DNA of 43,118 nt. It comes from a virus (taxonomy: Duplodnaviria > Heunggongvirae > Uroviricota > Caudoviricetes). The translations under genes were made by a program, and so were the position numbers. Positions 1-15,987 of the stretch are shown here, piece by piece; position 1 is the first letter of the stretch; each line of letters begins with the position of its first letter. The notes below the pieces were generated by a model that was not told the origin of the DNA, made no database searches, and saw only the letters and a program-made list of their open reading frames with translations. The stretch is taken from the IMG/VR virus record IMGVR_UViG_2541047857_000011. The stretch is one strand, 5' to 3'.

Positions 1-2109
1 TTACACCATACTGTTAACCTGGCCGGGTAATTCGCTAGCTGGAATACGAAAGGTATACCAGGCATAACGACAGCGTTTCCACAGGCTGGAGAAATGGAGA
101 TGATAAAGGCAATCTGCAATAATTTCGTTATCTGGATATAAAGACTCGGCAAAATGTGTCCAGCGCGCACTGAGTTTCATGTTAAACAGTTTTTCATCTT
201 CTTTGTTACCATACAGGCGCGACAAAGTAATCATTGCTTCGAGCGTACCTTTATTCGCTTCTTCTTGTACCTGTTGGAGGTGCAAATGAGCAAGTGAGAG
301 TTCTTTCACCTCAAAGATATTAAGTAAAAAAAGCCCCCATGCTTTTTCATGTCCAGCTTCATGAGCCAGAAATAAATTGTCAAGGAGATTTTTTTCATAA
401 ATAGCCCGTGTTTCTTTAGAAATTTCTTGTTTATTTAGTGCCTGGTAGCAGATAGCAATGCTAAAATAAATATTTTGTAGATCTTGTTGATGTTCGCTAT
501 AACCATAATTTTTTACCAGTGGATAAGATACCGAGCTATGGAAATTTAGGTCATCTTGAAGTATTTTAAGTGCCCGTCGAAAATACTCCAAAGCTGTAGA
601 TGGTTCATAAGGTAATTTTGTATTGTCTTCCTTATCCAAATATTCAAGAGCAACTAAATTTAATGCGGCAGGAATATTTCTTTGCTTACCAATTGTCGCA
701 AGCGGAATGAAATAATCAGAAAGGTCAAACCAACTCAAATCTTTTATTGCCGACCGCCAATTATGATTGTATTTAATGTCACTAGCTTTTTCCAGCCAAG
801 CATCGCCCTGCCCTTCATCTTTTTCAAAACCCAAAATACCCTCTCGCTGGAAAAACCCCCTATAAATAACAGGTGTAGCATAAGTTGTATTCTGTGAATT
901 TTGGCAGATAAAATTATATATCCAGAATGAATCTGGATAATAACTTAATGCAAATTTTATCGCGTACGCAGTGTAATAATTATTGAGCTTCATGTCTTCC
1001 ATCACCGCTCGCTGTATACAGCACCACAACTTATCGTGATCGTTCTGCTTGTTATAGCAGGCAAGTAACCACTCTAGGGCATTATGGCGACATTCCTGAA
1101 ATTGTGCGTACTGAGCAATATTCTCTGCTAAGTCGATTGCATATTGTTGCTCCTCGGGCGCAATGTCCTCAATGCTGACATCTCGGTAATCATCCCACCA
1201 AAGTAAGAGATCCATATAGTCATGTTCTTCGGTAGATAAGTGCTTACAGGTTACTGAATCCAGCAATTCGGAAATTTCTTTATGCGACCCTCCCCAGCGT
1301 GGCATTCGAAATGGTATATATTCAACAAAAGGATAAAAAGTGTGAGGAAAAATAGTCAGGCAAACAGAAAGCCAATATTTTTGCCCACCATCATCATCAT
1401 ACTCAGGAAGTATATTGGGGCGAGGCAAAACGGGGCATATTGCATGCTCAAACGAAAGTCCGGAATACGCCATCAACGCTTCCACTTCTTGCGGGGAGCG
1501 GCGGTGATAATTTTTCAGTGCGATCATTAATGGTATTCCTGCGACACTATCACCGTTAAGGTGTGCCGCCAGCCAGGCTGGCTGACCAAATACTTTTGAG
1601 TTGGTGCTGGTAAGTAATGCAGCCATCCATTGTCGTGGGTCACAATCAATTGCTTTAAGTGTAGCGATGACCATTTGTTCATTACATGCACCAGCACAAA
1701 GCCACATTGCATGTGTGGTATCATTTGCCCAGCCATAACTGCGATATAACCATGCACGGTGATTCCAGTATTGTGCTTCGGCAAGCCAGGCATGTGTAGA
1801 ATGAGGTCTTGCTTGCTGCCAGGTTTTAATGAGTCTTAAACCTTCTGTTCCGGCATCAACTAGCGTGTTCATATCATAAAAATAGTTGCACATTTGGGTC
1901 CAGGATAAAAAATAGCGCTTTTCAGCCTGACGAGAAGTGAAACTCTCCTGTAATACCTGGTTATAAATTTCATCTAGTTCCTGATAACGTTTTTCTTGTA
2001 ACATATAAGGAATATTTGCGATTTGCCATTTTCTCTCAAGAGTATTAAGTGGCATTTTTTGGTCACACATCTTTTGCATTGCACTGAGTAAACGAGCATC
2101 CTGTTCCAT
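1..2109 (-). CDS. Hypothetical protein, ~702 aa, third gene of an AT-rich operon; Trp-rich, no motif recognised
   Basis: Complete ORF with stop at 1-3. Start chosen at ATG 2107-2109 (MEQDARLL) because AAGGA lies 7 nt upstream; track alternative start is 2148. Lies 10 nt after the stop of the upstream gene. Visibly AT-rich compared with yegQ. Confidence 0.55.
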   Translation of the reverse strand: MEQDARLLSAMQKMCDQKMPLNTLERKWQIANIPYMLQEKRYQELDEIYNQVLQESFTSRQAEKRYFLSWTQMCNYFYDMNTLVDAGTEGLRLIKTWQQARPHSTHAWLAEAQYWNHRAWLYRSYGWANDTTHAMWLCAGACNEQMVIATLKAIDCDPRQWMAALLTSTNSKVFGQPAWLAAHLNGDSVAGIPLMIALKNYHRRSPQEVEALMAYSGLSFEHAICPVLPRPNILPEYDDDGGQKYWLSVCLTIFPHTFYPFVEYIPFRMPRWGGSHKEISELLDSVTCKHLSTEEHDYMDLLLWWDDYRDVSIEDIAPEEQQYAIDLAENIAQYAQFQECRHNALEWLLACYNKQNDHDKLWCCIQRAVMEDMKLNNYYTAYAIKFALSYYPDSFWIYNFICQNSQNTTYATPVIYRGFFQREGILGFEKDEGQGDAWLEKASDIKYNHNWRSAIKDLSWFDLSDYFIPLATIGKQRNIPAALNLVALEYLDKEDNTKLPYEPSTALEYFRRALKILQDDLNFHSSVSYPLVKNYGYSEHQQDLQNIYFSIAICYQALNKQEISKETRAIYEKNLLDNLFLAHEAGHEKAWGLFLLNIFEVKELSLAHLHLQQVQEEANKGTLEAMITLSRLYGNKEDEKLFNMKLSARWTHFAESLYPDNEIIADCLYHLHFSSLWKRCRYAWYTFRIPASELPGQVNSMV

Positions 2110-2119
2110 AGATATCCTT

Positions 2120-2836
2120 TTAATTAGGTTCAAAAATTTTAAATTCATTCCACGGCAATTTTTTCCAGTTACTGGATGGATCTTTCAACCATGCAGTGAC
2201 TTCCTTTAAATCACGGTTCGCAGTGGCGACGGGGGTATCGTATATCATTAACCATTTTTGTCGGGCGCGAACATAAGCACTGGCATAATCTTCCCATGAA
2301 GCGAAACAATCTTGTGCTCTTTGAGCATTCAGTAATAACACTATCCAGGCCTGGTTTTCATCGCACCAGCCTAAACCGGCGATGCAACGAGTTAAAAAAG
2401 CAGTGCGCATACAGTCAAACGCCAGCCCATCCAGAACCTGGCCTTGTGCTGCCAGTTGTTCGTAAAAATCATGTGGAGAATTACCAAGCCCTGTAGCCCA
2501 GCGCTGTAATATAACGCCAATTTGTTGACGGAAATCTTCGTTGCTTTGGTAAGTTTCTGTTCCTAGCTCTTGTTTAACCTGTAGTGCAAGTTGTTGACGC
2601 TTATCATCAGTCAACTTTAAATCTAACGTGAAGCCATTTACTGACAGTCCATTACGACGAGCAACTATATCACCAATTGCTAATGCCCACTTACGTCTCT
2701 TTGTTGCTCGTCTTTTGTCCTTGATTAGATCCTTTTCTTTTTCTTTAGCAATAAAAGCATCGATTTGTGGTTTGTTTTTTTTGTATCTATAGATAAAAAT
2801 AAATATTGCGACCAGGAGAACAATGATAAGACTCAT
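2120..2836 (-). CDS. Membrane-anchored hypothetical protein, 238 aa; N-terminal TM helix; C-terminal region resembles DUF1266-type proteins (tentative)
   Basis: Hydrophobic N-terminus MSLIIVLLVAIFIFIY followed by a Lys/Arg-rich stretch. Start ATG overlaps the stop of the upstream gene (ATGA at 2836-2839). The DUF1266 resemblance is from memory, not a search. Confidence 0.55.
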   Translation of the reverse strand: MSLIIVLLVAIFIFIYRYKKNKPQIDAFIAKEKEKDLIKDKRRATKRRKWALAIGDIVARRNGLSVNGFTLDLKLTDDKRQQLALQVKQELGTETYQSNEDFRQQIGVILQRWATGLGNSPHDFYEQLAAQGQVLDGLAFDCMRTAFLTRCIAGLGWCDENQAWIVLLLNAQRAQDCFASWEDYASAYVRARQKWLMIYDTPVATANRDLKEVTAWLKDPSSNWKKLPWNEFKIFEPN

Positions 2837-4050
2837 TATTTTTCAACCTCTGACAGGGGTAAGTAATGAGATGTCTGTAATGTCAAACTCTCTATCTCAA
2901 AGGAAATGTTGCTGATATTTTGACCTGCAAATTGCGGATGCCACTCAGCGCCAGGGAATAACATTTCCGCAGAAGTAGCAACTATAGGGTCAATAGCATT
3001 AAGATAATGTAACTTATCAGGTGCGCTGTGTAACAGTAACCACTGCAACTCCACTGAAGGATTTGTAAAATGTTCTAATAAATGAAAGTTATTATGTAGT
3101 ACGCTTAGTAAAAAACTGGTTTCGTATACTTCCGTTACATATTTCCACCCCTGATATTCAGGTGTATTTTCATAAACAATACCCATACCTTCACAATCAC
3201 TATGTCGAACTGCTTGTGGTGATAATAGTTGCAAAAGAGACAAAACATCGTCCGCATATTTTTTAACTGGATGACGATTTTGCTTACCTTTTATTTGATC
3301 AATTTCAAGTGAATCACCAACAACATTGAGAGCAATAGTAACATGAGGAATATTATTATTATCACGCAAACTGAATAACCGTAATTTATGTTGCTCAATT
3401 TGATTTGCATAATACTCACCATAACCACCGGTAAGATTTTTTCGATCATCAAACTGGCCTACGCAATGTTGCATATGCCATGATTCATAAGCCATTTCAC
3501 GACGAAGGTTCGAATGACTGGCATCAAACTCAACAATTTTTCCGTCTGGCACATCAAGTATTGACTTTACAGTATTTTGTTCACTCGGCTGCCACCCTTT
3601 CTCGCGTCGTTGAAGCATCTTTTCATGCTCTTCTTCACGCATTCTGAACGCAACGTAGCAGGTTATGCGCTGTAGTTTTGATTCCAGACGGGTACCACAT
3701 TTCCTGGAAAGAAATTCCACCAACTCCCGTTCTTTGGTTAATATTTGTTGATGATCGGTTTCGATATAATAAAGTGTCGCAGTTGATACTGAGGCAGTAT
3801 TAAACTTCGATACCAGCCATTCCGGGATTACATCATCATTTTTATTAAACAGTGAATATTCTGCAAGCGAGTTAATTTGTTGCACCATTGGAAAGTCACT
3901 AATTAGCCATCGATAAAAATGGTTGAGTAACCATTTTTGGATGGTCTCATTATCCTGGCGAAACAGACTTCTTTGCAAAATTGCTGTTTTTACTTCCGGG
4001 GCATTAATTACATCCCTTGCATTATAATTCTGGTGAATATTTCCAGTCAT
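2836..4050 (-). CDS. Hypothetical protein, 404 aa, first gene of the AT-rich operon
   Basis: Long ORF preceded by an AT-rich promoter-like region (4051-4270); translationally coupled to the downstream gene. Contains an HMQHCVGQ...YGEYY segment; no family assigned confidently. Confidence 0.55.
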   Translation of the reverse strand: MTGNIHQNYNARDVINAPEVKTAILQRSLFRQDNETIQKWLLNHFYRWLISDFPMVQQINSLAEYSLFNKNDDVIPEWLVSKFNTASVSTATLYYIETDHQQILTKERELVEFLSRKCGTRLESKLQRITCYVAFRMREEEHEKMLQRREKGWQPSEQNTVKSILDVPDGKIVEFDASHSNLRREMAYESWHMQHCVGQFDDRKNLTGGYGEYYANQIEQHKLRLFSLRDNNNIPHVTIALNVVGDSLEIDQIKGKQNRHPVKKYADDVLSLLQLLSPQAVRHSDCEGMGIVYENTPEYQGWKYVTEVYETSFLLSVLHNNFHLLEHFTNPSVELQWLLLHSAPDKLHYLNAIDPIVATSAEMLFPGAEWHPQFAGQNISNISFEIESLTLQTSHYLPLSEVEK

Positions 4051-4537
4051 AACATCCGCCCGTGTTTATTATATCACTCAAAGCAATAATTGTTGACTAT
4101 AGATTTTTTATCTAAATCAGCATGGTTGCAGGTACATACTCAAGTAAGCCACTCAAGAAAATAACGTAAACTCAATAGTGGCAGCGTCACAAACTTTGGA
4201 AATTATGTCTTATATTTGCAGTTTATTTTAGTGAATAATTGAGATAAATGACATTATTTTACATCCTCAATAATTCAGGCTGTAAGAGGACGGCAAATAC
4301 ATTCATAATTATCAGGGGATGAACATTCAGGAAAGTAGTCAGTATCGTCAACTTTTTCTTTTATCACTACATGAAGATTTCGTGTAGATACTCCCATCTC
4401 TGCCACTTCTCCCCTCACATTTACACTGGAGCTAAACCCGCCGATTGCGCTACAATGCCCGCCCTTAAAGTGGGGGCACTCCCCTAACCGCTTCATCAGG
4501 TGAAGCGGCTCTGACCTGTCATCAGAACGAGAGAATT

Positions 4538-5899
4538 ATGTTTAAACCGGAACTCCTTTCCCCGGCGGGAACGCTGAAAAATATGCGTTACGCTTTCGCT
4601 TATGGCGCAGATGCTGTTTATGCGGGCCAGCCGCGTTACTCCCTGCGTGTACGCAACAACGAATTCAACCACGAAAATCTTCAGCTCGGCATCAATGAAG
4701 CCCACGCGCTGGGGAAAAAGTTTTATGTCGTGGTCAACATTGCACCGCACAACGCCAAGCTGAAAACCTTTATCCGTGACCTGAAACCGGTGGTGGAAAT
4801 GGGGCCGGATGCGCTGATTATGTCCGATCCAGGGCTGATTATGCTGGTGCGTGAACACTTCCCGGAAATGCCAATCCACCTCTCGGTACAGGCTAACGCC
4901 GTAAACTGGGCGACGGTGAAATTCTGGCAGCAAATGGGTCTGACCCGCGTGATCCTCTCTCGCGAACTGTCACTGGAAGAGATTGAAGAGATCCGCAATC
5001 AGGTGCCGGATATGGAGATCGAAATCTTCGTTCACGGCGCGCTGTGCATGGCCTACTCCGGTCGCTGCCTGCTCTCTGGCTATATCAACAAGCGCGACCC
5101 GAACCAGGGCACCTGCACCAACGCCTGCCGCTGGGAGTACAATGTCCAGGAAGGGAAAGAAGATGACGTCGGCAACATCGTACACAAGTACGAGCCGATT
5201 CCGGTGCAAAATGTTGAGCCGACGCTGGGTATCGGCGCGCCAACCGACAAAGTGTTTATGATCGAAGAAGCCCAGCGTCCGGGCGAGTATATGACCGCGT
5301 TTGAAGATGAGCACGGCACTTACATCATGAACTCGAAAGATCTGCGCGCCATCGCCCATGTTGAACGCCTGACCAAAATGGGCGTGCATTCGCTGAAAAT
5401 CGAAGGCCGTACCAAATCTTTCTACTATTGCGCACGCACCGCGCAGGTTTACCGTAAAGCTATCGATGACGCCGCTGCGGGCAAACCGTTCGATACCAGC
5501 CTGCTGGAAACGCTGGAAGGTCTGGCGCATCGTGGCTATACCGAAGGTTTCCTGCGTCGTCATACCCACGACGATTATCAGAACTACGAATACGGTTATT
5601 CGGTTTCTGACCGCCAGCAGTTTGTTGGTGAGTTTACCGGTGAGCGCAAGGGGGAGCTCGCGGCGGTAGCGGTGAAAAATAAATTCTCCGTTGGCGACAG
5701 CCTTGAGCTGATGACGCCGCAAGGCAACATTAACTTTACCCTTGAGCATATGGAAAACGCCAAAGGTGAAGCGATGCCGGTCGCACCAGGCGATGGTTAT
5801 ACTGTGTGGCTCCCGGTGCCGCAGGATCTTGAGCTAAATTACGCGCTGCTGATGCGTAATTTCTCCGGGGAAACCACGCGTAACCCCCACGGTAAGTGA
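4538..5899 (+). CDS. yegQ: U32-family peptidase-like protein YegQ (tRNA hydroxylation protein TrhP)
   Basis: 453-aa ORF whose N-terminus (MFKPELLSPAGTLKNMRYAFAYGADAVYAGQPRY...) matches E. coli YegQ as I remember it; conserved position immediately upstream of cyaR. Confidence 0.9.
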   Translation: MFKPELLSPAGTLKNMRYAFAYGADAVYAGQPRYSLRVRNNEFNHENLQLGINEAHALGKKFYVVVNIAPHNAKLKTFIRDLKPVVEMGPDALIMSDPGLIMLVREHFPEMPIHLSVQANAVNWATVKFWQQMGLTRVILSRELSLEEIEEIRNQVPDMEIEIFVHGALCMAYSGRCLLSGYINKRDPNQGTCTNACRWEYNVQEGKEDDVGNIVHKYEPIPVQNVEPTLGIGAPTDKVFMIEEAQRPGEYMTAFEDEHGTYIMNSKDLRAIAHVERLTKMGVHSLKIEGRTKSFYYCARTAQVYRKAIDDAAAGKPFDTSLLETLEGLAHRGYTEGFLRRHTHDDYQNYEYGYSVSDRQQFVGEFTGERKGELAAVAVKNKFSVGDSLELMTPQGNINFTLEHMENAKGEAMPVAPGDGYTVWLPVPQDLELNYALLMRNFSGETTRNPHGK

Positions 5900-5983
5900 T
5901 TAATTTCGATTATTTTTCCCGGATGGAAAATTCTTAGAAACCGATCACATACAGCTGCATTTATTAAGGTTATCATCCGTTTC

Positions 5984-6070
5984 GCTGAAAAACATAACCC
6001 ATAAAATGCTAGCTGTACCAGGAACCACCTCCTTAGCCTGTGTAATCTCCCTTACACGGGCTTATTTTTT
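5984..6070 (+). ncRNA. cyaR: CyaR (RyeE) Hfq-dependent sRNA
   Basis: Sequence GCTGAAAAACATAACCCATAAAATGCTAGCTGTACCAGGAACCACCTCCTTAGCCTGTGTAATCTCCCTTACACGGGCTTATTTTTT matches cyaR as I remember it, ending in its terminator hairpin and U-tract; TATCAT -10-like element at 5971-5976. Confidence 0.85.
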
Positions 6071-6071
6071 A
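6044..6071. repeat. Prophage att core, ogr-proximal copy, overlapping the cyaR 3' end
   Basis: AATCTCCCTTACACGGGCTTATTTTTTA is repeated exactly at 42446-42473 and contains the reverse complement of the 27-bp P2 att core AAAAAATAAGCCCGTGTAAGGGAGATT. Confidence 0.85.
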
Positions 6072-6133
6072 CGCGTAACACAATGAAATAAAAGGATTTA
6101 TTTCTGGTCACGTCCACACATTGACCACATCGA

Positions 6134-6158
6134 CAAAAAAGCCCCTCGACTGAGGGGC
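6134..6158 (-). terminator. Rho-independent terminator downstream of ogr
   Basis: Hairpin GCCCCTC-GACT-GAGGGGC followed on the minus strand by TTTTTTG. Confidence 0.6.
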
Positions 6159-6171
6159 TTCCTGTTTGTAA

Positions 6172-6390
6172 TTACATCCACATAATTTGCTGCCCTGACG
6201 GCAACGGGTGCGGTCTTACGGCGTGGACTTCTCCCGGCTTCACGATGTATCGCTGTACCGACTCATAAGTGATGAATGTGGCGCTGCAATTCACGTTCTG
6301 ACACTGGTGATAACGCTCTTTTGTCGTGTCAGTGATATAGCGGCTTGTACGCGCATGTGCGGCATGCTGGCATAAAGGACAATGAAACAT
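6172..6390 (-). CDS. ogr: P2 Ogr late-gene transcriptional activator (zinc finger), 72 aa
   Basis: Translation MFHCPLCQHAAHARTSRYITDTTKERYHQCQNVNCSATFITYESVQRYIVKPGEVHAVRPHPLPSGQQIMWM matches P2 Ogr. Start set at the ATG at 6388-6390, downstream of the track's longest ORF. Confidence 0.9.
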   Translation of the reverse strand: MFHCPLCQHAAHARTSRYITDTTKERYHQCQNVNCSATFITYESVQRYIVKPGEVHAVRPHPLPSGQQIMWM

Positions 6391-6471
6391 CGCGAGCACC
6401 TCTTCCGGTTTTGTTGATGGTGCCATTTTAGTTAATTTATCCTTATAAAACAAACAGATAAATAAATTACA

Positions 6472-7635
6472 TCACTCATCATCTTCTGTTTCGTACTCCA
6501 CATCAGAAAGCCTGACCTCAAGCTCTAAGGACGTCGTGAAGCCGCTATTATTCAGAAAATGTGTCACCTTAGTGATTGTCCAGTCCTGCTCGTCTATGAC
6601 GCGCTTAAAGCCTGATACTTTAACCGGTGTTTCCGTGTAAATATCAGCACGACCGGTAGCCAGGCTGATGGAGAACTCCGCAACGCCCCGTTGCAGTTTA
6701 TCCCACTTCGCCTGAGCGGCACGCATGGCCTGTGCTTTCGTGGCATATACCGTGGTCAGGGCAAAAACGTTGTCAGCCTCACCGGCCATGTATTCACCTT
6801 CGCGCGCTTCCGGTACTCTTGGCGCTTTCTTCTGCCTGACCGGTTTTGCTTTCGGGTGCTCCAGTGCGCGCAGGTGTTTTTCTTTCTTTTTGCGTTTCAG
6901 TTTTACCTTCTGCTTTTGCGGCTTCGGGTCTTTGGTGTGTAACCACTTTGCCGTTACGCCGGTATAGGCTCCACGGTCAGCAATCGCAAAATGATGGCGG
7001 TCGCCGTCGCTGCGGGTGATGGTGACCTGCGGGATTTTTTTACCGCTGGCCGTCACCCCCTGCCCCGCTTTGAGAAACAGCAGTTTTCCCATTTTTACCG
7101 ACACCTCACCGCCGTTGCGTTCTGCAAGACGGGTCAGGAATTTCGCATCAGACTCCTGCGACTGGTCGATGTGCGGAATTTTAATTCCGGCCAGTGACGG
7201 AGCGATACTGGCTTCCAGCCTGTTACGGGAGGCAATCGCCTCAACAATCGCACCGAGCGTGGTGTCATGCCAGGAGCCTTCCCGGCGGGAATTGAGCGTC
7301 CCGCGAAAATCTGCACTCCGGGCGCGGATGGTGACCACATCCGGCGCGCCCCGGTGTTCAACCTCATCAACGGTAAATTTCCCTTTGCATACCAGGGCAA
7401 AACCTTTCCAGCCGATATACACCGTCAGGACAGCGCCACGAACCGGCAGCCCGACCTGCCCGTCGGCATCGTTCAGTTCAATATCAAGCTGGTCAGCCTC
7501 AAAGCCCCGGTTATCCGTCAGGGTCATGCTCATCAGACGGTCGCTGATATTGCCGGTAATATCCCTGCTGTCGAGCATCAGCATGTAATCCGGCGTCAGC
7601 GTACTGCCTGCATCAAATGTCAGCGCATCCAGCAT
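6472..7635 (-). CDS. D: P2 gpD-like tail protein
   Basis: 387 aa, same size and position as P2 D between U and ogr. Confidence 0.85.
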   Translation of the reverse strand: MLDALTFDAGSTLTPDYMLMLDSRDITGNISDRLMSMTLTDNRGFEADQLDIELNDADGQVGLPVRGAVLTVYIGWKGFALVCKGKFTVDEVEHRGAPDVVTIRARSADFRGTLNSRREGSWHDTTLGAIVEAIASRNRLEASIAPSLAGIKIPHIDQSQESDAKFLTRLAERNGGEVSVKMGKLLFLKAGQGVTASGKKIPQVTITRSDGDRHHFAIADRGAYTGVTAKWLHTKDPKPQKQKVKLKRKKKEKHLRALEHPKAKPVRQKKAPRVPEAREGEYMAGEADNVFALTTVYATKAQAMRAAQAKWDKLQRGVAEFSISLATGRADIYTETPVKVSGFKRVIDEQDWTITKVTHFLNNSGFTTSLELEVRLSDVEYETEDDE

Positions 7636-11583: not shown

Positions 11584-12774
11584 TTAATTGCTGTTAACCG
11601 AGGTGACCAGATTTGCCAGGTATTTATCGGTAATACGCTGGCGCAGGGTCAGGTTTTCAAGAGGAGGCACCGGTGTATAGTCGTAGTCGATATACAGTTT
11701 TCCGGCCTTGAGGGTTTCCGCATCGTTGGATTCTTCGCTGAACCAGCAGGTCGCATCCACGATATAGCCGTTTGTTTTCAGCTCACGGAATTTGGCATTG
11801 ATGCCGTCAACGATGTCGCGAATCAGCGTTGCGGTGATGGGCTTGTCCACCGCCCACATGTGCGCCTCAGCCATCGTGTCGGCCATCACCTGCGCGGTGC
11901 GGGTGTAGTTTTCAAAGAGGAACAGCGGGTCATCAGAGCAGGTACGGTTACCCCAGAATCGGAAACCGTCGCGGCGAATCAGCGTAGTGACGCCTGACTC
12001 GTTAAGCAGGTCAGCATCGGTGCCGGACTCCTGCAAATCCCAGAATACAGATGCGCTGATGCCGGTAACACCGTTTACCCCGACGTTGGACAGCGTTTTA
12101 TGCCAGCCCTGCTCCTGGTCGATTTTAGCGCGCAGACCCAGCGCACGGGCGGTGGCATACGCGGTGGCGGTGGTACTGGTGACCGTATCCCATGCGAGGA
12201 AATCCGGCCAGATGACCATCAGCTCACGCTGGCTGAAATTCTGGCGGTAGGCTTTCACCTCGGAAATGGTCTTACAGCCCCATGCGCTGATATATCCGAA
12301 AGCGCGCAGCTTCTGACAGACGGATGCCAGTGCAACAGCCACCTCTTTGGTATCCAGTCCCGGCACACCGAGAATACGCGGTTTAACACCGGTTACCGAC
12401 TCCGCCGCCAGCAGGGCTTTTAGTCCGGTGTACTGACCGTTTTCGTCGGTGGTGCCGATGATATTGGAAACGGTCTGCGCGAGTTTCGTTTCCTCGTCAT
12501 CACCGGTGCCGTCTTCCACGCGCACGACAACGGTGACCGGTTTTGACTGGTCAGCGATGGCCTGCAACGATGCCGCCAGCGTGCCTTTTTTACCGGCCTT
12601 TGCAATTGCGCTTTGCACATTGGTAATCAGCACCGGTTTATTGAGGGGGAAGGTTTCCGCATCCGCATCGCTGGCCGTGCAGACCATGCCGACAATGGCA
12701 GTGGATACGGTGGAAATGACGCGGGTGCCGTCGTTAATCTCCAGCACCTGCACGCCATGATGATAGTCACTCAT
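11584..12774 (-). CDS. FI: Contractile tail sheath protein (P2 gpFI-like)
   Basis: 396 aa, same size as P2 FI; first gene of the FI-FII-E-T-U-D operon. Confidence 0.9.
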   Translation of the reverse strand: MSDYHHGVQVLEINDGTRVISTVSTAIVGMVCTASDADAETFPLNKPVLITNVQSAIAKAGKKGTLAASLQAIADQSKPVTVVVRVEDGTGDDEETKLAQTVSNIIGTTDENGQYTGLKALLAAESVTGVKPRILGVPGLDTKEVAVALASVCQKLRAFGYISAWGCKTISEVKAYRQNFSQRELMVIWPDFLAWDTVTSTTATAYATARALGLRAKIDQEQGWHKTLSNVGVNGVTGISASVFWDLQESGTDADLLNESGVTTLIRRDGFRFWGNRTCSDDPLFLFENYTRTAQVMADTMAEAHMWAVDKPITATLIRDIVDGINAKFRELKTNGYIVDATCWFSEESNDAETLKAGKLYIDYDYTPVPPLENLTLRQRITDKYLANLVTSVNSN

Positions 12775-13104: not shown

Positions 13105-13482
13105 ATGAAATCAATTTTAGAGGTTTTTACTCAAGGAAATACTAAAGAAAAACTGGCTGTTATCGCCGATCTCACAACCATTGCGGGAATATCGATTGCA
13201 ACTATTATTGCTGGTTTGTTAACCCTAGTTGCAAAAACAGATAAACTAGATGTTGGAAATCTGTTTGGAGTTGTCATAATATCTCTGCTCGGATTGGCTG
13301 GTGTTTGCTGTTTTGTGGCCTTATTTATTTGGGTTATAACCCAAATGTCTAAACCATGGGGAACACCTCGGGGGGTTCAGCCCTTAGTTAAGTGTGCTAT
13401 TTCCCTTATCTTTATCTGTATGTTTTTGCTGGCTGTCTTTACATTTTATGAGTTTATTTCTTCGATGAGCATACGCTATTGA
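13105..13482 (+). CDS. Small integral membrane protein, ~125 aa, three predicted TM helices (prophage cargo)
   Basis: AGGTGG 8 nt upstream of the ATG at 13105; TATAAT-like element upstream; three long hydrophobic segments; AT-rich; opposite strand to the flanking late genes. Confidence 0.65.
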   Translation: MKSILEVFTQGNTKEKLAVIADLTTIAGISIATIIAGLLTLVAKTDKLDVGNLFGVVIISLLGLAGVCCFVALFIWVITQMSKPWGTPRGVQPLVKCAISLIFICMFLLAVFTFYEFISSMSIRY

Positions 13483-13504
13483 ATATAAAATCAGCCCCCA
13501 TAAC

Positions 13505-14089
13505 TTAAAAGAGACCTTCTATATCGACTTCAATGCCCAAATAACGGACTGTGCTTTCCAGTTTCTTATGGCCCAACAGAAGTTGGATCCCCCGGAGACT
13601 CTTGGTTTTCTTGTAGATTAAGTAAGGTTTTGTTCTTCTCATGGAATGTGTGCTGTACAGCGAATCTTCGAGACCAAGCTTTTCTACCCACCCATGAAAA
13701 ATTCGGTTGTATTGCCGGGTTGATATATGGTGGTTAGTTCCGACCCGAGAGCGGAACAGGAAGCCTTTACTATGCCAGTTGCCGAGCTTTATCAATGCAG
13801 TAACCGCTTCCCTTGTCCCTTTGGTTATCTCAAATTGGACAGGGCTGCCGGTTTTCTGTTGCAACACCGTTGCTCTGCTTGAGACAGAACTGCCATATGC
13901 AGCATCTGATACTTTGAGTTTGACCAAATCACAGCCCCGTAGCTTAGTGTCCAAAGCCATGTTGAACAGAGCTAGATCGCGTGTTTTACCTTCCAACTCA
14001 AGTCTAATCCGGATCCCCCAGATATGAGATATCTGAAGTGGCCTTTTTTGACCGATGGTACGGTCTTTATTCCACGGTGACGTTTTCAT
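13505..14089 (-). CDS. Small tyrosine site-specific recombinase, ~194 aa (FimB/FimE-sized, catalytic core only)
   Basis: Start ATG 14087-14089 has AGGAGA 8 nt upstream. Catalytic signature present: R in TKLRGCDL, K in QQKTGSP, HSMRRT (H-x-x-R), LLGH, and Tyr in STVRYLG. No N-terminal arm-binding domain. Confidence 0.75.
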   Translation of the reverse strand: MKTSPWNKDRTIGQKRPLQISHIWGIRIRLELEGKTRDLALFNMALDTKLRGCDLVKLKVSDAAYGSSVSSRATVLQQKTGSPVQFEITKGTREAVTALIKLGNWHSKGFLFRSRVGTNHHISTRQYNRIFHGWVEKLGLEDSLYSTHSMRRTKPYLIYKKTKSLRGIQLLLGHKKLESTVRYLGIEVDIEGLF

Positions 14090-14195
14090 ATTCAAATCTC
14101 CTGCAATGTGGGAGATTTGAGTATGGTTGTCTCTCAAGAGCGAAAATAAGTCAACTATCACTAGTTGTTGCGCATGTACGTATTCTGTCAATTAA

Positions 14196-15038
14196 TTATT
14201 GACAATCATCAATTCTGGAATGATCAAAATCATCATATCGAATTATAGTCTGGTTGACTGTATCTATTGTTGGTGTCATTTCTGTTATAATATCCTGATA
14301 ACCTAAAGAGTTAAATACATTTACTAAGGCCTCACACCGAAGGGCCGTAGCAATTACAAAATTATAAATTGCCAGCCGTTTATTTTCTTGTTTAACTGCA
14401 AGAATGAATTCGATAGCAGTATTTTCATCACTTTGGATTGCATTATATAGAGATACTATATTTACCATATCATCAGAGAATGTATGTATTGAATCACAAA
14501 GAGGAACGTAATGGGCATGATAGTGTGTTTCCCAGCCAATTAATTCAAAAAGTTTTCTGGTTCCTGGATATTCAGGTGTATTTGGCCACAATCTATTAAA
14601 TAGATCAGTTAGTTCTTTTCCCATGCGAATCCTTTCATTTGCTGCTGGATTAGTCATTCCTTTGGATTTTAAACACTCCAGCCACCGTTTTCCATTACTA
14701 TGAACTAATTTCTTACTAGCCTTGAGTAATGCTTGTGCATTTTCGCCATCATCTATTGCTATATAAAATTGATTGGCAGCCTGTTCTATTATAACCCTAG
14801 CTAATACTTCCGATGCTGAAAAGGCTCCTATATTCAAAGAAGAGATAGCCTGATTACTAAGTTCATTCAGTACATTAAAGTACTGTAAGACCATCAATTT
14901 TTGTTCCACACCCTTTAGGTTGTCTATTTTATTTTTATGCTCCTCAAATTTTGCATGGATATATTTATTTATCGCGGCTATTTTTTTTACATCTTCGTCA
15001 AGATCAAACGGGCAACGTCCAAACAATTCTTTTTTCAT
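14196..15038 (-). CDS. Hypothetical protein, 280 aa, unknown function; co-oriented immediately upstream of the recombinase
   Basis: ATG at 15036-15038 with AGGAGA 6 nt upstream; AT-rich; no nucleotide-binding, RT or nuclease motif recognised. Confidence 0.65.
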   Translation of the reverse strand: MKKELFGRCPFDLDEDVKKIAAINKYIHAKFEEHKNKIDNLKGVEQKLMVLQYFNVLNELSNQAISSLNIGAFSASEVLARVIIEQAANQFYIAIDDGENAQALLKASKKLVHSNGKRWLECLKSKGMTNPAANERIRMGKELTDLFNRLWPNTPEYPGTRKLFELIGWETHYHAHYVPLCDSIHTFSDDMVNIVSLYNAIQSDENTAIEFILAVKQENKRLAIYNFVIATALRCEALVNVFNSLGYQDIITEMTPTIDTVNQTIIRYDDFDHSRIDDCQ

Positions 15039-15459: not shown

Positions 15460-15987
15460 TTATTGCGGCATTTCCGGCCATTCAGGATTTGCAGGATCCA
15501 CACGGCTGACCAGAACACTGTAGCGTTCCCATGCTTCCAGTCGGCTACGCTCATCATCTGTTGCCATATTCAGTCTGACAGAGCGTTCCAGTGGCTGAAT
15601 GATAGTTTCAGCTTCGGAAAGCAAAGCTGACTTCTGTAATTCCGCCAGTTGCAGCTGTTCGTCTGCCGTATAAATCCGCTTAATCACGGCACCATCCTTA
15701 AACATCCATTTACCTGAGTCATCAGCACGTCGGTTGGCGGTAATATCAGGAACCTCGACAACGCTAAAACCTTCAGGGTTGAGCGTTGAAGCATCTCTGG
15801 TGATGCCGACAATTATATTATTCTCATCGTAAACAATCTTTATCGTGTCTTCCTGAAAATTACTTACTTCCTCATACCAGTTTTTTCCCTCTTCGGACCA
15901 TAACCAGATAACATCAAAATTTTTTGTCAGTTGATATTGGGCAACAGTTTTTGGATTACCCGCAGTAATATTTTTTAAATGCTGCAT
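15460..15987 (-). CDS. G: Tail fiber assembly chaperone (P2 gpG-like)
   Basis: 175 aa, same size as P2 G; immediately downstream of the tail fiber gene. Confidence 0.8.

Follow-up and report, generated by a model that had tools for sequence, protein, structure and literature searches.

The stretch of DNA analyzed here (the window; IMG/VR virus record IMGVR_UViG_2541047857_000011, 43,118 nucleotides) is 100% identical to Escherichia coli ATCC 11775, whose coordinates at this locus are labelled L001 below. It opens with three minus-strand genes upstream of yegQ, designated here gene 1 (2836..4050, 404 amino acids, aa), gene 2 (2120..2836, 238 aa) and gene 3 (1..2109, with its stop codon at 1-3; 702 aa from the ATG at 2109). 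A preliminary description of this DNA had proposed three minus-strand genes of 404, 238 and ~702 aa, and both the open reading frames and the RefSeq coding sequences, which are the same for each gene, agree with it. By our own calculation, which used a stop-codon frequency of ~0.063 in DNA of roughly 60% AT, the probability of such reading frame lengths arising by chance is ~4e-12 for gene 1, 2e-7 for gene 2 and 1e-20 for gene 3. The families had been considered not assignable from sequence; Pfam, however, assigned PcfJ to gene 1, DUF1266 to gene 2 and DUF4034 to gene 3.

The three genes are closely packed. At the first junction (TAATG), the final A of the gene 1 stop codon TAA is also the A of the gene 2 ATG, giving an overlap of 1 nt at 2836 and not the ATGA overlap described initially. 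At the second junction (2110..2122, minus strand), the gene 2 stop codon TAA is followed by a 10-nt spacer (AAGGATATCT) before the gene 3 ATG, as had been noticed, and the AAGGA Shine-Dalgarno sequence of gene 3 abuts this stop. The 1-nt overlap and the 10-nt spacer with AAGGA indicate that genes 1-3 are probably translationally coupled, and the Klebsiella and Burkholderia loci likewise have abutting or overlapping junctions. If translation began at an alternative in-frame ATG at 2148, gene 3 would be 13 codons longer (715 aa) and would overlap gene 2 by 29 nt (region 2107-2148, minus strand), but the start at 2109 is favoured by the lengths of homologues (702-708 aa) and by the position of the Shine-Dalgarno sequence.

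In ATCC 11775 this region makes up most of a 5.2-kb island, acquired horizontally and located between yegP and yegQ. A comparison of E. coli genomes at baeR-yegP-yegQ, which the preliminary description had recommended, defined the edges of the island and three states of the site. The insert (L001 13245-18446, 5,202 bp; right edge at window position 4446) replaces 21 bp of the empty, K-12-like site. The three genes were present in 298 of 5,426 complete E. coli genomes (5.5%), while 1,844 genomes carried a ParDE toxin-antitoxin pair at the same site and the site was empty or otherwise occupied in the remaining genomes, K-12-like strains being empty. The GC content of genes 1-3 is 0.38-0.41, and that of third codon positions (GC3) is 0.30-0.35, whereas yegQ and baeR have a GC content of 0.54 and GC3 of 0.62-0.65; the greater AT richness reported earlier was therefore correct. 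Klebsiella copies of the island proteins are 60-64% identical to those of E. coli, in contrast to 93-94% for the flanking BaeR and YegQ. Variably present at a fixed site and atypical in composition, the segment is a horizontally acquired island, as had been suspected, and its genes are neither core genes nor clear homologs of housekeeping functions. The edge of the island still contains the final ~19 nt of parE (4417-4435, plus strand), where the ParE annotation underlies the match at 4417-4537, and the yegP side of the island has 59 bp in common with the ParDE allele only. Therefore, one cassette replaced the other at this site.

The window begins exactly at the stop codon of gene 3, and for this reason yegP and a fourth gene had been missed. 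It is true that the window itself contains no yegP-like reading frame, but the genome has yegP ~0.8 kb past the window edge, and the implied loss or replacement of this gene is not supported. Similarly, the three-gene extent holds for the conserved core, but not for the E. coli island, which has four genes. Gene 4 (WP_000928864.1; L001 13335-13940, minus strand), which is located outside the window, 61-666 bp left of its first position, codes for a predicted secreted protein of 201 aa, starts 60 nt after gene 3, has a GC content of 0.45 and carries a signal peptide that ends in ...LPANA|GC. The gene 4 segment was detected in 300 of the 5,426 genomes and was at least 99% identical in 296 of these 300. 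Gene 4 was found only in E. coli and was absent from every non-E. coli locus with the other three genes; it had no match to a protein family, PDB structure or PADLOC defence model. The three conserved genes (the triad) also occur at baeR-yegQ in Klebsiella, Citrobacter, Buttiauxella, Superficieibacter and Salmonella salamae (L009, L012-L015, L044 and L092), where they are co-oriented with the flanking genes, opposite to the E. coli arrangement, and where yegP and gene 4 are lacking; their proteins are only ~60% identical to those of E. coli. Independent capture at one hotspot and an old insertion followed by inversion are both conceivable origins of these copies.

Upstream of gene 1, alignment of occupied, empty and ParDE-filled sites delimited an AT-rich non-coding leader of the island (4051..4446, no strand). 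A consensus scan detected in it a candidate sigma-70-like promoter (4068..4096, minus strand; TCAACA, 17 nt, TG-TATAAT), which ends 17 nt before the gene 1 ATG, matches 10 of 12 consensus positions and has an extended -10 element. This is weak evidence, and the call is tentative because promoter and terminator scans of the region were no richer than those of shuffled sequences. An Rfam search of positions 1-7000 found nothing in the island, its sole match, CyaR, being outside it.

Families and predicted folds of the three proteins

The PcfJ-like family (PF14284) takes its name from pcfJ, a gene on the conjugative plasmid pCF10 of Enterococcus faecalis. The match of gene 1 to this family (aa 141-268) was marginal, with a score of 26.2 bits (cut-off 25, E=7.5e-6); all 40 gene 1 homologues matched it as well, the best at 5.4e-8. 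The protein consists of an N-terminal helical domain, an alpha/beta core and a C-terminal helical region, has no hydrophobic segment and is predicted to be cytoplasmic. Its conserved core (3136..3573, minus strand; about aa 160-305) contains residues that were invariant in the 40 homologues: E189, M193, H195, C196, G198, Y214, R229, P235, H236, T238, Q252, K254, G255, K256, N258, P261, Y265, D285 and G290. The same residues were also conserved in a set of 129 distant PcfJ domains, some of which are parts of polyvalent proteins. These domains retained H195 and C196 (each 59/61), R229 (88/88), H236 and T238 (each 87/88), Q252 (84/89), G255 (88/88) and N258 (85/89). Within PcfJ, gene 1 belongs to a small distinct branch, with 50 of 2,111 representatives at E<=1e-30.

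An alignment-based AlphaFold2 (AF2) model of gene 1 had a predicted local distance difference test score (pLDDT) of 86 and the secondary structure order b1-a1-a2-b2-b3-b4-a3-b5 (b, strand; a, helix). Almost all of the top 50 Foldseek matches of this model were GNAT-fold acetyltransferases, with probability up to 0.94 and E of at least 0.06. No link to GNATs or PDB entries was found at the sequence or profile level in Pfam and PDB-sequence searches. In the Q252-I-K-G255-K-Q257 segment at the b4-a3 junction, Q and G match GNAT motif A (Q/R-x-x-G-x-G/A), and by the topology of the model the conserved residues would be placed on the a1-a2 loop, the b2 end, the b3 start, the b4 end and the b4-a3 loop, which would correspond to the cofactor and acceptor face of GNATs. 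We therefore regard gene 1 as a protein whose fold is remotely GNAT-like and whose active site is probable, and not as a demonstrated acetyltransferase. A catalytic function is somewhat more probable than its absence, and acyl-transfer chemistry is a tentative prediction with less than an even chance. A cofactor or substrate that carries phosphate, such as acyl-CoA or a nucleotide, is suggested by the basic residues R229, K254 and K256, and the adjacent H195 and C196 might form a catalytic dyad or belong to a metal site. We also considered a nuclease of the PD-(D/E)xK type, given the aβββαβ core and its QxK motif, and dropped this idea, as both fold searches gave only GNATs.

Gene 2 matched DUF1266 (PF06889) with 68.7 bits (cut-off 27, E=9.5e-19). 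The membrane anchor proposed earlier at the N-terminus of the middle protein was confirmed as a hydrophobic segment, SLIIVLLVAIFIFIY, which is followed by a basic stretch, RYKKNK...KRRATKRRK. The transmembrane segment (aa 2-17; 2786..2833, minus strand; hydropathy 2.1-2.65) was kept in 30 of 32 standalone homologues and was absent from proteins in which genes 1 and 2 are fused. Gene 2 is thus a predicted single-pass inner-membrane protein, and by the positive-inside rule its DUF1266 domain would be cytoplasmic. The AF2 model (pLDDT 85) consists of a long helix, residues 2-53, comprising the transmembrane segment and a charged stalk, and of a helical bundle, residues 77-218; it had no meaningful fold match in PDB, and a sequence and profile search of PDB sequences was empty. 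Invariant in the 32 homologues were RRxWALA in the stalk and AFxCxRxAF...LNAQRAQDxFxSW in the core. Because standalone copies keep the transmembrane segment and fusions have lost it, gene 2 is probably an anchor or adaptor for gene 1. As the anchor is dispensable in fusions, binding, rather than membrane location, may be the essential contribution of gene 2.

Gene 3 matched the full length of the DUF4034 domain (PF13226; aa 30-306) with 339.7 bits (cut-off 21.3, E=1.7e-101), and the same domain was matched by 15 of 15 gene 3 homologues. The C-terminal half of the protein is helical and Sel1/TPR-like. Sel1 repeats (PF08238) were matched in 8 of the 15 homologues, the best at 1.1e-10, while the E. 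coli protein itself has diverged below threshold, with no Sel1 match and only TPR_1 at E=0.026. For gene 3, too, PDB sequences yielded no match in sequence and profile searches. Its product is probably cytoplasmic and, judging by its repeats, a probable scaffold or sensor subunit.

Conservation of the triad

A collection of 185,579 species, each represented by a single genome, contained relatives of gene 1 at 187 loci. We scored 84 loci with component profiles, and 83 of them were classifiable, comprising the E. coli locus and 82 loci from other genomes of Beta- and Gammaproteobacteria. A co-occurrence analysis had been proposed in the preliminary description, and its result was uniform: at every locus complete enough to judge, gene 1 is located directly before DUF1266, or is fused to it, and one large helical-repeat protein is present. 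The loci fell into two types. In type A (40 loci, including that of E. coli), the order gene 1, DUF1266, DUF4034 (Sel1-like) is constant; the hosts are Enterobacterales, Burkholderia, Variovorax, Rhizobacter, Iodobacter, Chitinilyticum and Lysobacter. In type B (43 loci), a TPR-like protein of ~780 aa precedes gene 1 and DUF1266, and the hosts are Pseudomonas, Trinickia, Ralstonia, Cupriavidus, Delftia, Acidovorax and others. None of the 83 loci carried both repeat-protein types. The possibility that types A and B are gene-order permutations of one homologous triad was rejected, since profile-profile comparison (hhalign) of DUF4034 with the TPR partner gave a probability of 0.9%.

Fusions of gene 1 with DUF1266 were detected at six surveyed loci, representing both types, and in many database proteins. 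P0221 is a triple fusion of PcfJ, DUF1266 and TPR, and P0232 is a fusion of gene 1 with TPR. No other neighbours were conserved across genera among the surveyed loci. Co-inheritance, fusions and translational coupling together are strong comparative evidence that the three products act together, and we consider it very likely that they form one functional unit. In a separate observation, a 792-aa protein retrieved with the gene 3 query (P0135) had the front of DUF1266 joined to DUF4034, both with parts missing; it looks like the product of an in-frame deletion which fused genes 2 and 3 in some enterobacterial assemblies.

Previous studies offered little on these families. In 8 million full texts, DUF1266 had only three incidental mentions, DUF4034 had none, and nothing was found on PcfJ function; searches with the Pfam accessions, ybeR, ybeU, ynjI and hscC combined with defence terms gave no functional data. 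NCBIfam and PHROGs returned nothing useful for the island proteins. The triad is not assignable to any characterised kind of system, and if we call it new, this means undescribed and not demonstrably unprecedented in its action.

Possible mechanism and role

Taken as a whole, the data are best explained by a membrane-tethered complex of an enzyme, an adaptor and a scaffold that would modify a target; we give this explanation an even chance of being right. The three proteins would come together on the cytoplasmic side of the inner membrane. Gene 1 would be the enzyme, with its Glu/His-Cys/Arg/His-Thr/Gln-x-Lys-Gly-Lys-x-Asn/Tyr/Asp constellation located where GNATs bind acyl-CoA and the acceptor, whereas the cytoplasmic DUF1266 domain of gene 2 would tether or regulate it, and gene 3, or the TPR protein in type B, would supply protein-protein recognition as a scaffold or sensor. 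Gated or directed by the repeat protein, gene 1 might act at the inner membrane on a macromolecule or metabolite, either of the cell or of an invader, and modify it covalently, possibly by transfer of an acyl or other group. It is in this sense that we infer catalysis, its chemistry, the target and the role of the triad. The setting is most likely inter-genomic conflict or envelope-linked stress, and not housekeeping.

It should be noted that a number of observations weigh against parts of this explanation or against a conflict role. The physical complex of the three proteins is proposed on comparative evidence, and the clustering of conserved residues in gene 1 would follow from the topology of the model only. 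The last position of motif A is Gln257, and not Gly or Ala (G occurs in 15 of 88 distant domains), and the b4-a3 loop is ~5 residues longer than in GNATs. As regards mobility, the island annotation includes no integrase, and a boundary search found neither repeats flanking the island nor a mobile-element signature. Phage records did not contain the triad, and among plasmid records it was present only in eight very large, non-mobilizable ones. The Burkholderia cassette is widespread and has a host-like GC content. A search with the 5,027 models of PADLOC-DB v2 gave no match for genes 1, 2 and 4 and only a non-significant one, to PDC-S32, for gene 3 (E=1.4e-3, 16.7 bits), and near the loci there were no recurrent defence genes or mobile elements, the neighbours being mostly housekeeping genes.

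The last of these points bear on the possibility that the triad is an anti-phage or anti-plasmid defence system, in which the repeat protein would sense an invader and the membrane-held PcfJ enzyme would modify a host or invader target, leading to abortive infection or interference. This proposal is compatible with the enzyme-adaptor-scaffold complex, which does not itself depend on a defence role. It is consistent with the patchy distribution of the triad (5.5% of E. coli genomes and 187 loci among 185,579 species), with the signature of horizontal transfer seen in GC3 and the Klebsiella identities, and with a variable hotspot whose alternative cargo is ParDE and which adjoins the attachment region of a P2 prophage. 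The exchange of unrelated, sensor-like repeat proteins between architectures, the shuffling and fusion of domains and the occurrence of PcfJ cores in the polyvalent proteins of mobile elements point in the same direction. However, in addition to the database and neighbourhood results given above, copies of the cassette in Burkholderia and Variovorax are stable and adapted to their hosts, and no support was found in the literature, so that we regard a defence role as possible but doubtful. An envelope-stress or proteostasis module is, in our view, rather unlikely. Here a DUF1266 and Sel1 client-recognition pair would be coupled to a modifying enzyme, by analogy with the K-12 clusters ybeQ-ybeR-djlB and ybeT-ybeU-djlC-hscC, in which Sel1 proteins are paired with DUF1266 proteins and translationally coupled to membrane-anchored J-proteins. 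The gene 2 profile did match YbeU (4.6e-8) and YbeR (4e-6), and the gene 3 profile matched YbeQ (1.6e-11) and YbeT (1.5e-5); the contexts of the loci are chromosomal and housekeeping-like, and in five enterobacterial genera the cassette is located beside the baeSR envelope-stress genes. This adjacency is confined to Enterobacterales, however, and the similarity is limited to the DUF1266 core and generic Sel1 repeats, while Pfam and annotation show no J-domain or Hsp70 in the island. Moreover, the literature holds no data on the function of the K-12 cluster, and the analogy therefore carries no mechanism.

Two further explanations fit the data less well. Type II GNAT toxin-antitoxin systems are two-gene units in which a toxin of ~170 aa is adjacent to an RHH or DUF1778 antitoxin, and the toxins TacT, AtaT and KacT acetylate aminoacyl-tRNA. 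A comparable role of gene 1, neutralised by gene 2 and/or gene 3 and stabilising the island, is suggested by its GNAT-like predicted fold, by the tight translational coupling and by ParDE occupying the same chromosomal site in other strains. We consider it quite improbable: gene 1, at 404 aa, carries large additional domains and does not resemble GNAT toxins in sequence, its partners are DUF1266 and DUF4034 and not RHH or DUF1778-type antitoxins, the ~700-aa third component is without counterpart in type II systems, and stable fusions of gene 1 with gene 2 and TPRs are common, which is unexpected for a toxin with a labile antitoxin. Finally, the island might now be functionless in E. coli, being either what is left of a decaying conjugative element or polyvalent protein or else cargo of the type VI effector-immunity kind. 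PcfJ owes its name to a gene of the pCF10 conjugation operon and occurs in polyvalent proteins, and one locus had a neighbouring TsiV-like gene and IS110. This idea is already largely refuted and scarcely credible, because all reading frames have stayed intact in some 300 E. coli genomes, with the gene 4 segment conserved in 296 as described above, because the triad and its invariant residues are maintained across two proteobacterial classes, and because no type IV or type VI secretion system (T4SS, T6SS), relaxase or integrase genes were seen near inspected loci.

If the enzyme-adaptor-scaffold complex is taken further, the triad may represent an undescribed class of membrane-tethered sensor-effector, with a PcfJ enzyme under the control of a DUF1266 adaptor and an interchangeable Sel1 or TPR sensor, that would function in anti-phage or anti-plasmid activity or in signalling of envelope damage. 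The enzyme would then be a divergent GNAT-like catalytic module that mobile elements otherwise employ within polyvalent proteins. We put this forward tentatively, as a speculation with less than an even chance. If true, it would provide the first functional handle on the K-12 DUF1266 and Sel1 pairs (YbeQ/R and YbeT/U, with DjlB/C-HscC) and on the PcfJ domain. In any case, three orphan DUF-type annotations become one testable system in a tractable host, E. coli, whose type strain carries it, and the triad becomes linked to long-standing K-12 y-genes adjoining hscC. The PcfJ domain, which is also embedded in giant injected proteins of plasmids and phages, gains a predicted fold and a candidate active site. 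An immune or stress function of the triad would imply a new effector chemistry and a new type of membrane adaptor, and if it has neither, the locus is still a variable hotspot beside yegQ with three states: empty, ParDE and this island.

Several features of neighbouring DNA were recorded as well. Between yegQ and the prophage gene ogr, the small RNA CyaR/RyeE was located at 5982-6067 (plus strand; Rfam 100.7 bits, gathering threshold 47), an expected core feature. A P2-like prophage lies directly downstream of yegQ and CyaR and extends from ~6172 to at least 18537, with ogr (6172-6390) and gpD (6472-7635) followed by tail genes; K-12 keeps only ogrK and gpD remnants at this position. The prophage has non-P2 cargo at 13105-15038, between the tail sheath gene (11584-12774) and a tail-fibre assembly gene (15460-15987), coding for a 125-aa hypothetical protein (plus strand), a short 194-aa tyrosine recombinase (minus strand) and a 280-aa DUF5677 protein (minus strand). 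This position corresponds to a variable site known from P2-like phages, where defence genes are often found; a PADLOC search of the cargo had no matches. Outside the window, mdtD (L001 9374-10579) is annotated with 401 aa in ATCC 11775 and with 465-471 aa in two other strains, and may be a truncated or re-started allele.

Comparison with known systems

The gene 1 protein resembles other members of the PcfJ family in that it shares the H-C pair and the R..PHxT..QxKGKxN..Y..D pattern with the 129 distant PcfJ domains. However, its branch is chromosomal, has N- and C-terminal helical regions of its own and is partnered with DUF1266 and a repeat protein. It is also found without the context of a conjugative plasmid or T4SS, no T4SS or relaxase neighbours being present at inspected loci. 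The resemblance of the gene 1 model to the GNAT fold consists of the predicted order of strands and helices and of a partial motif A.

PcfJ cores, often in 2-3 copies, occur in proteins of 1,100-3,300 aa together with ART-PolyVal, ASCH, InPase and Topoisomerase-I domains. This set of domains is a hallmark of the polyvalent proteins that phages and conjugative elements encode (Iyer, Burroughs, Anand, de Souza, Aravind 2017; PMC5512222). PcfJ is not named in that study, and its identity with the GNAT families treated in it is not established. By analogy, these contexts suggest that the PcfJ core may be an effector-type catalytic module used in conflicts. Gene 1 differs from polyvalent proteins in being a stand-alone, 404-aa chromosomal protein with dedicated partners.

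A parallel to the partners of gene 1 is found in the K-12 clusters ybeQ-ybeR-djlB and ybeT-ybeU-djlC-hscC, which share with the island a pair of DUF1266 and Sel1-type proteins, translational coupling to a larger partner and membrane anchoring. Pairwise similarity is weak, DjlB and DjlC have no similarity to genes 1 and 3, and gene 3 of the island has an additional DUF4034 domain. The partner in K-12 is a J-domain co-chaperone with the Hsp70 HscC, whereas in the island it is a predicted PcfJ enzyme. At 675-683 kb of K-12 (L011), strongly hydrophobic segments were located at the C-termini of DjlB and DjlC (tail anchors) and at the N-terminus of YbeT, and in neither YbeR nor YbeU. The module of DUF1266 and Sel1 proteins in K-12 is therefore also membrane-tethered, but via a different subunit: the anchor is on DjlB and DjlC in K-12 and on the DUF1266 protein in the island.

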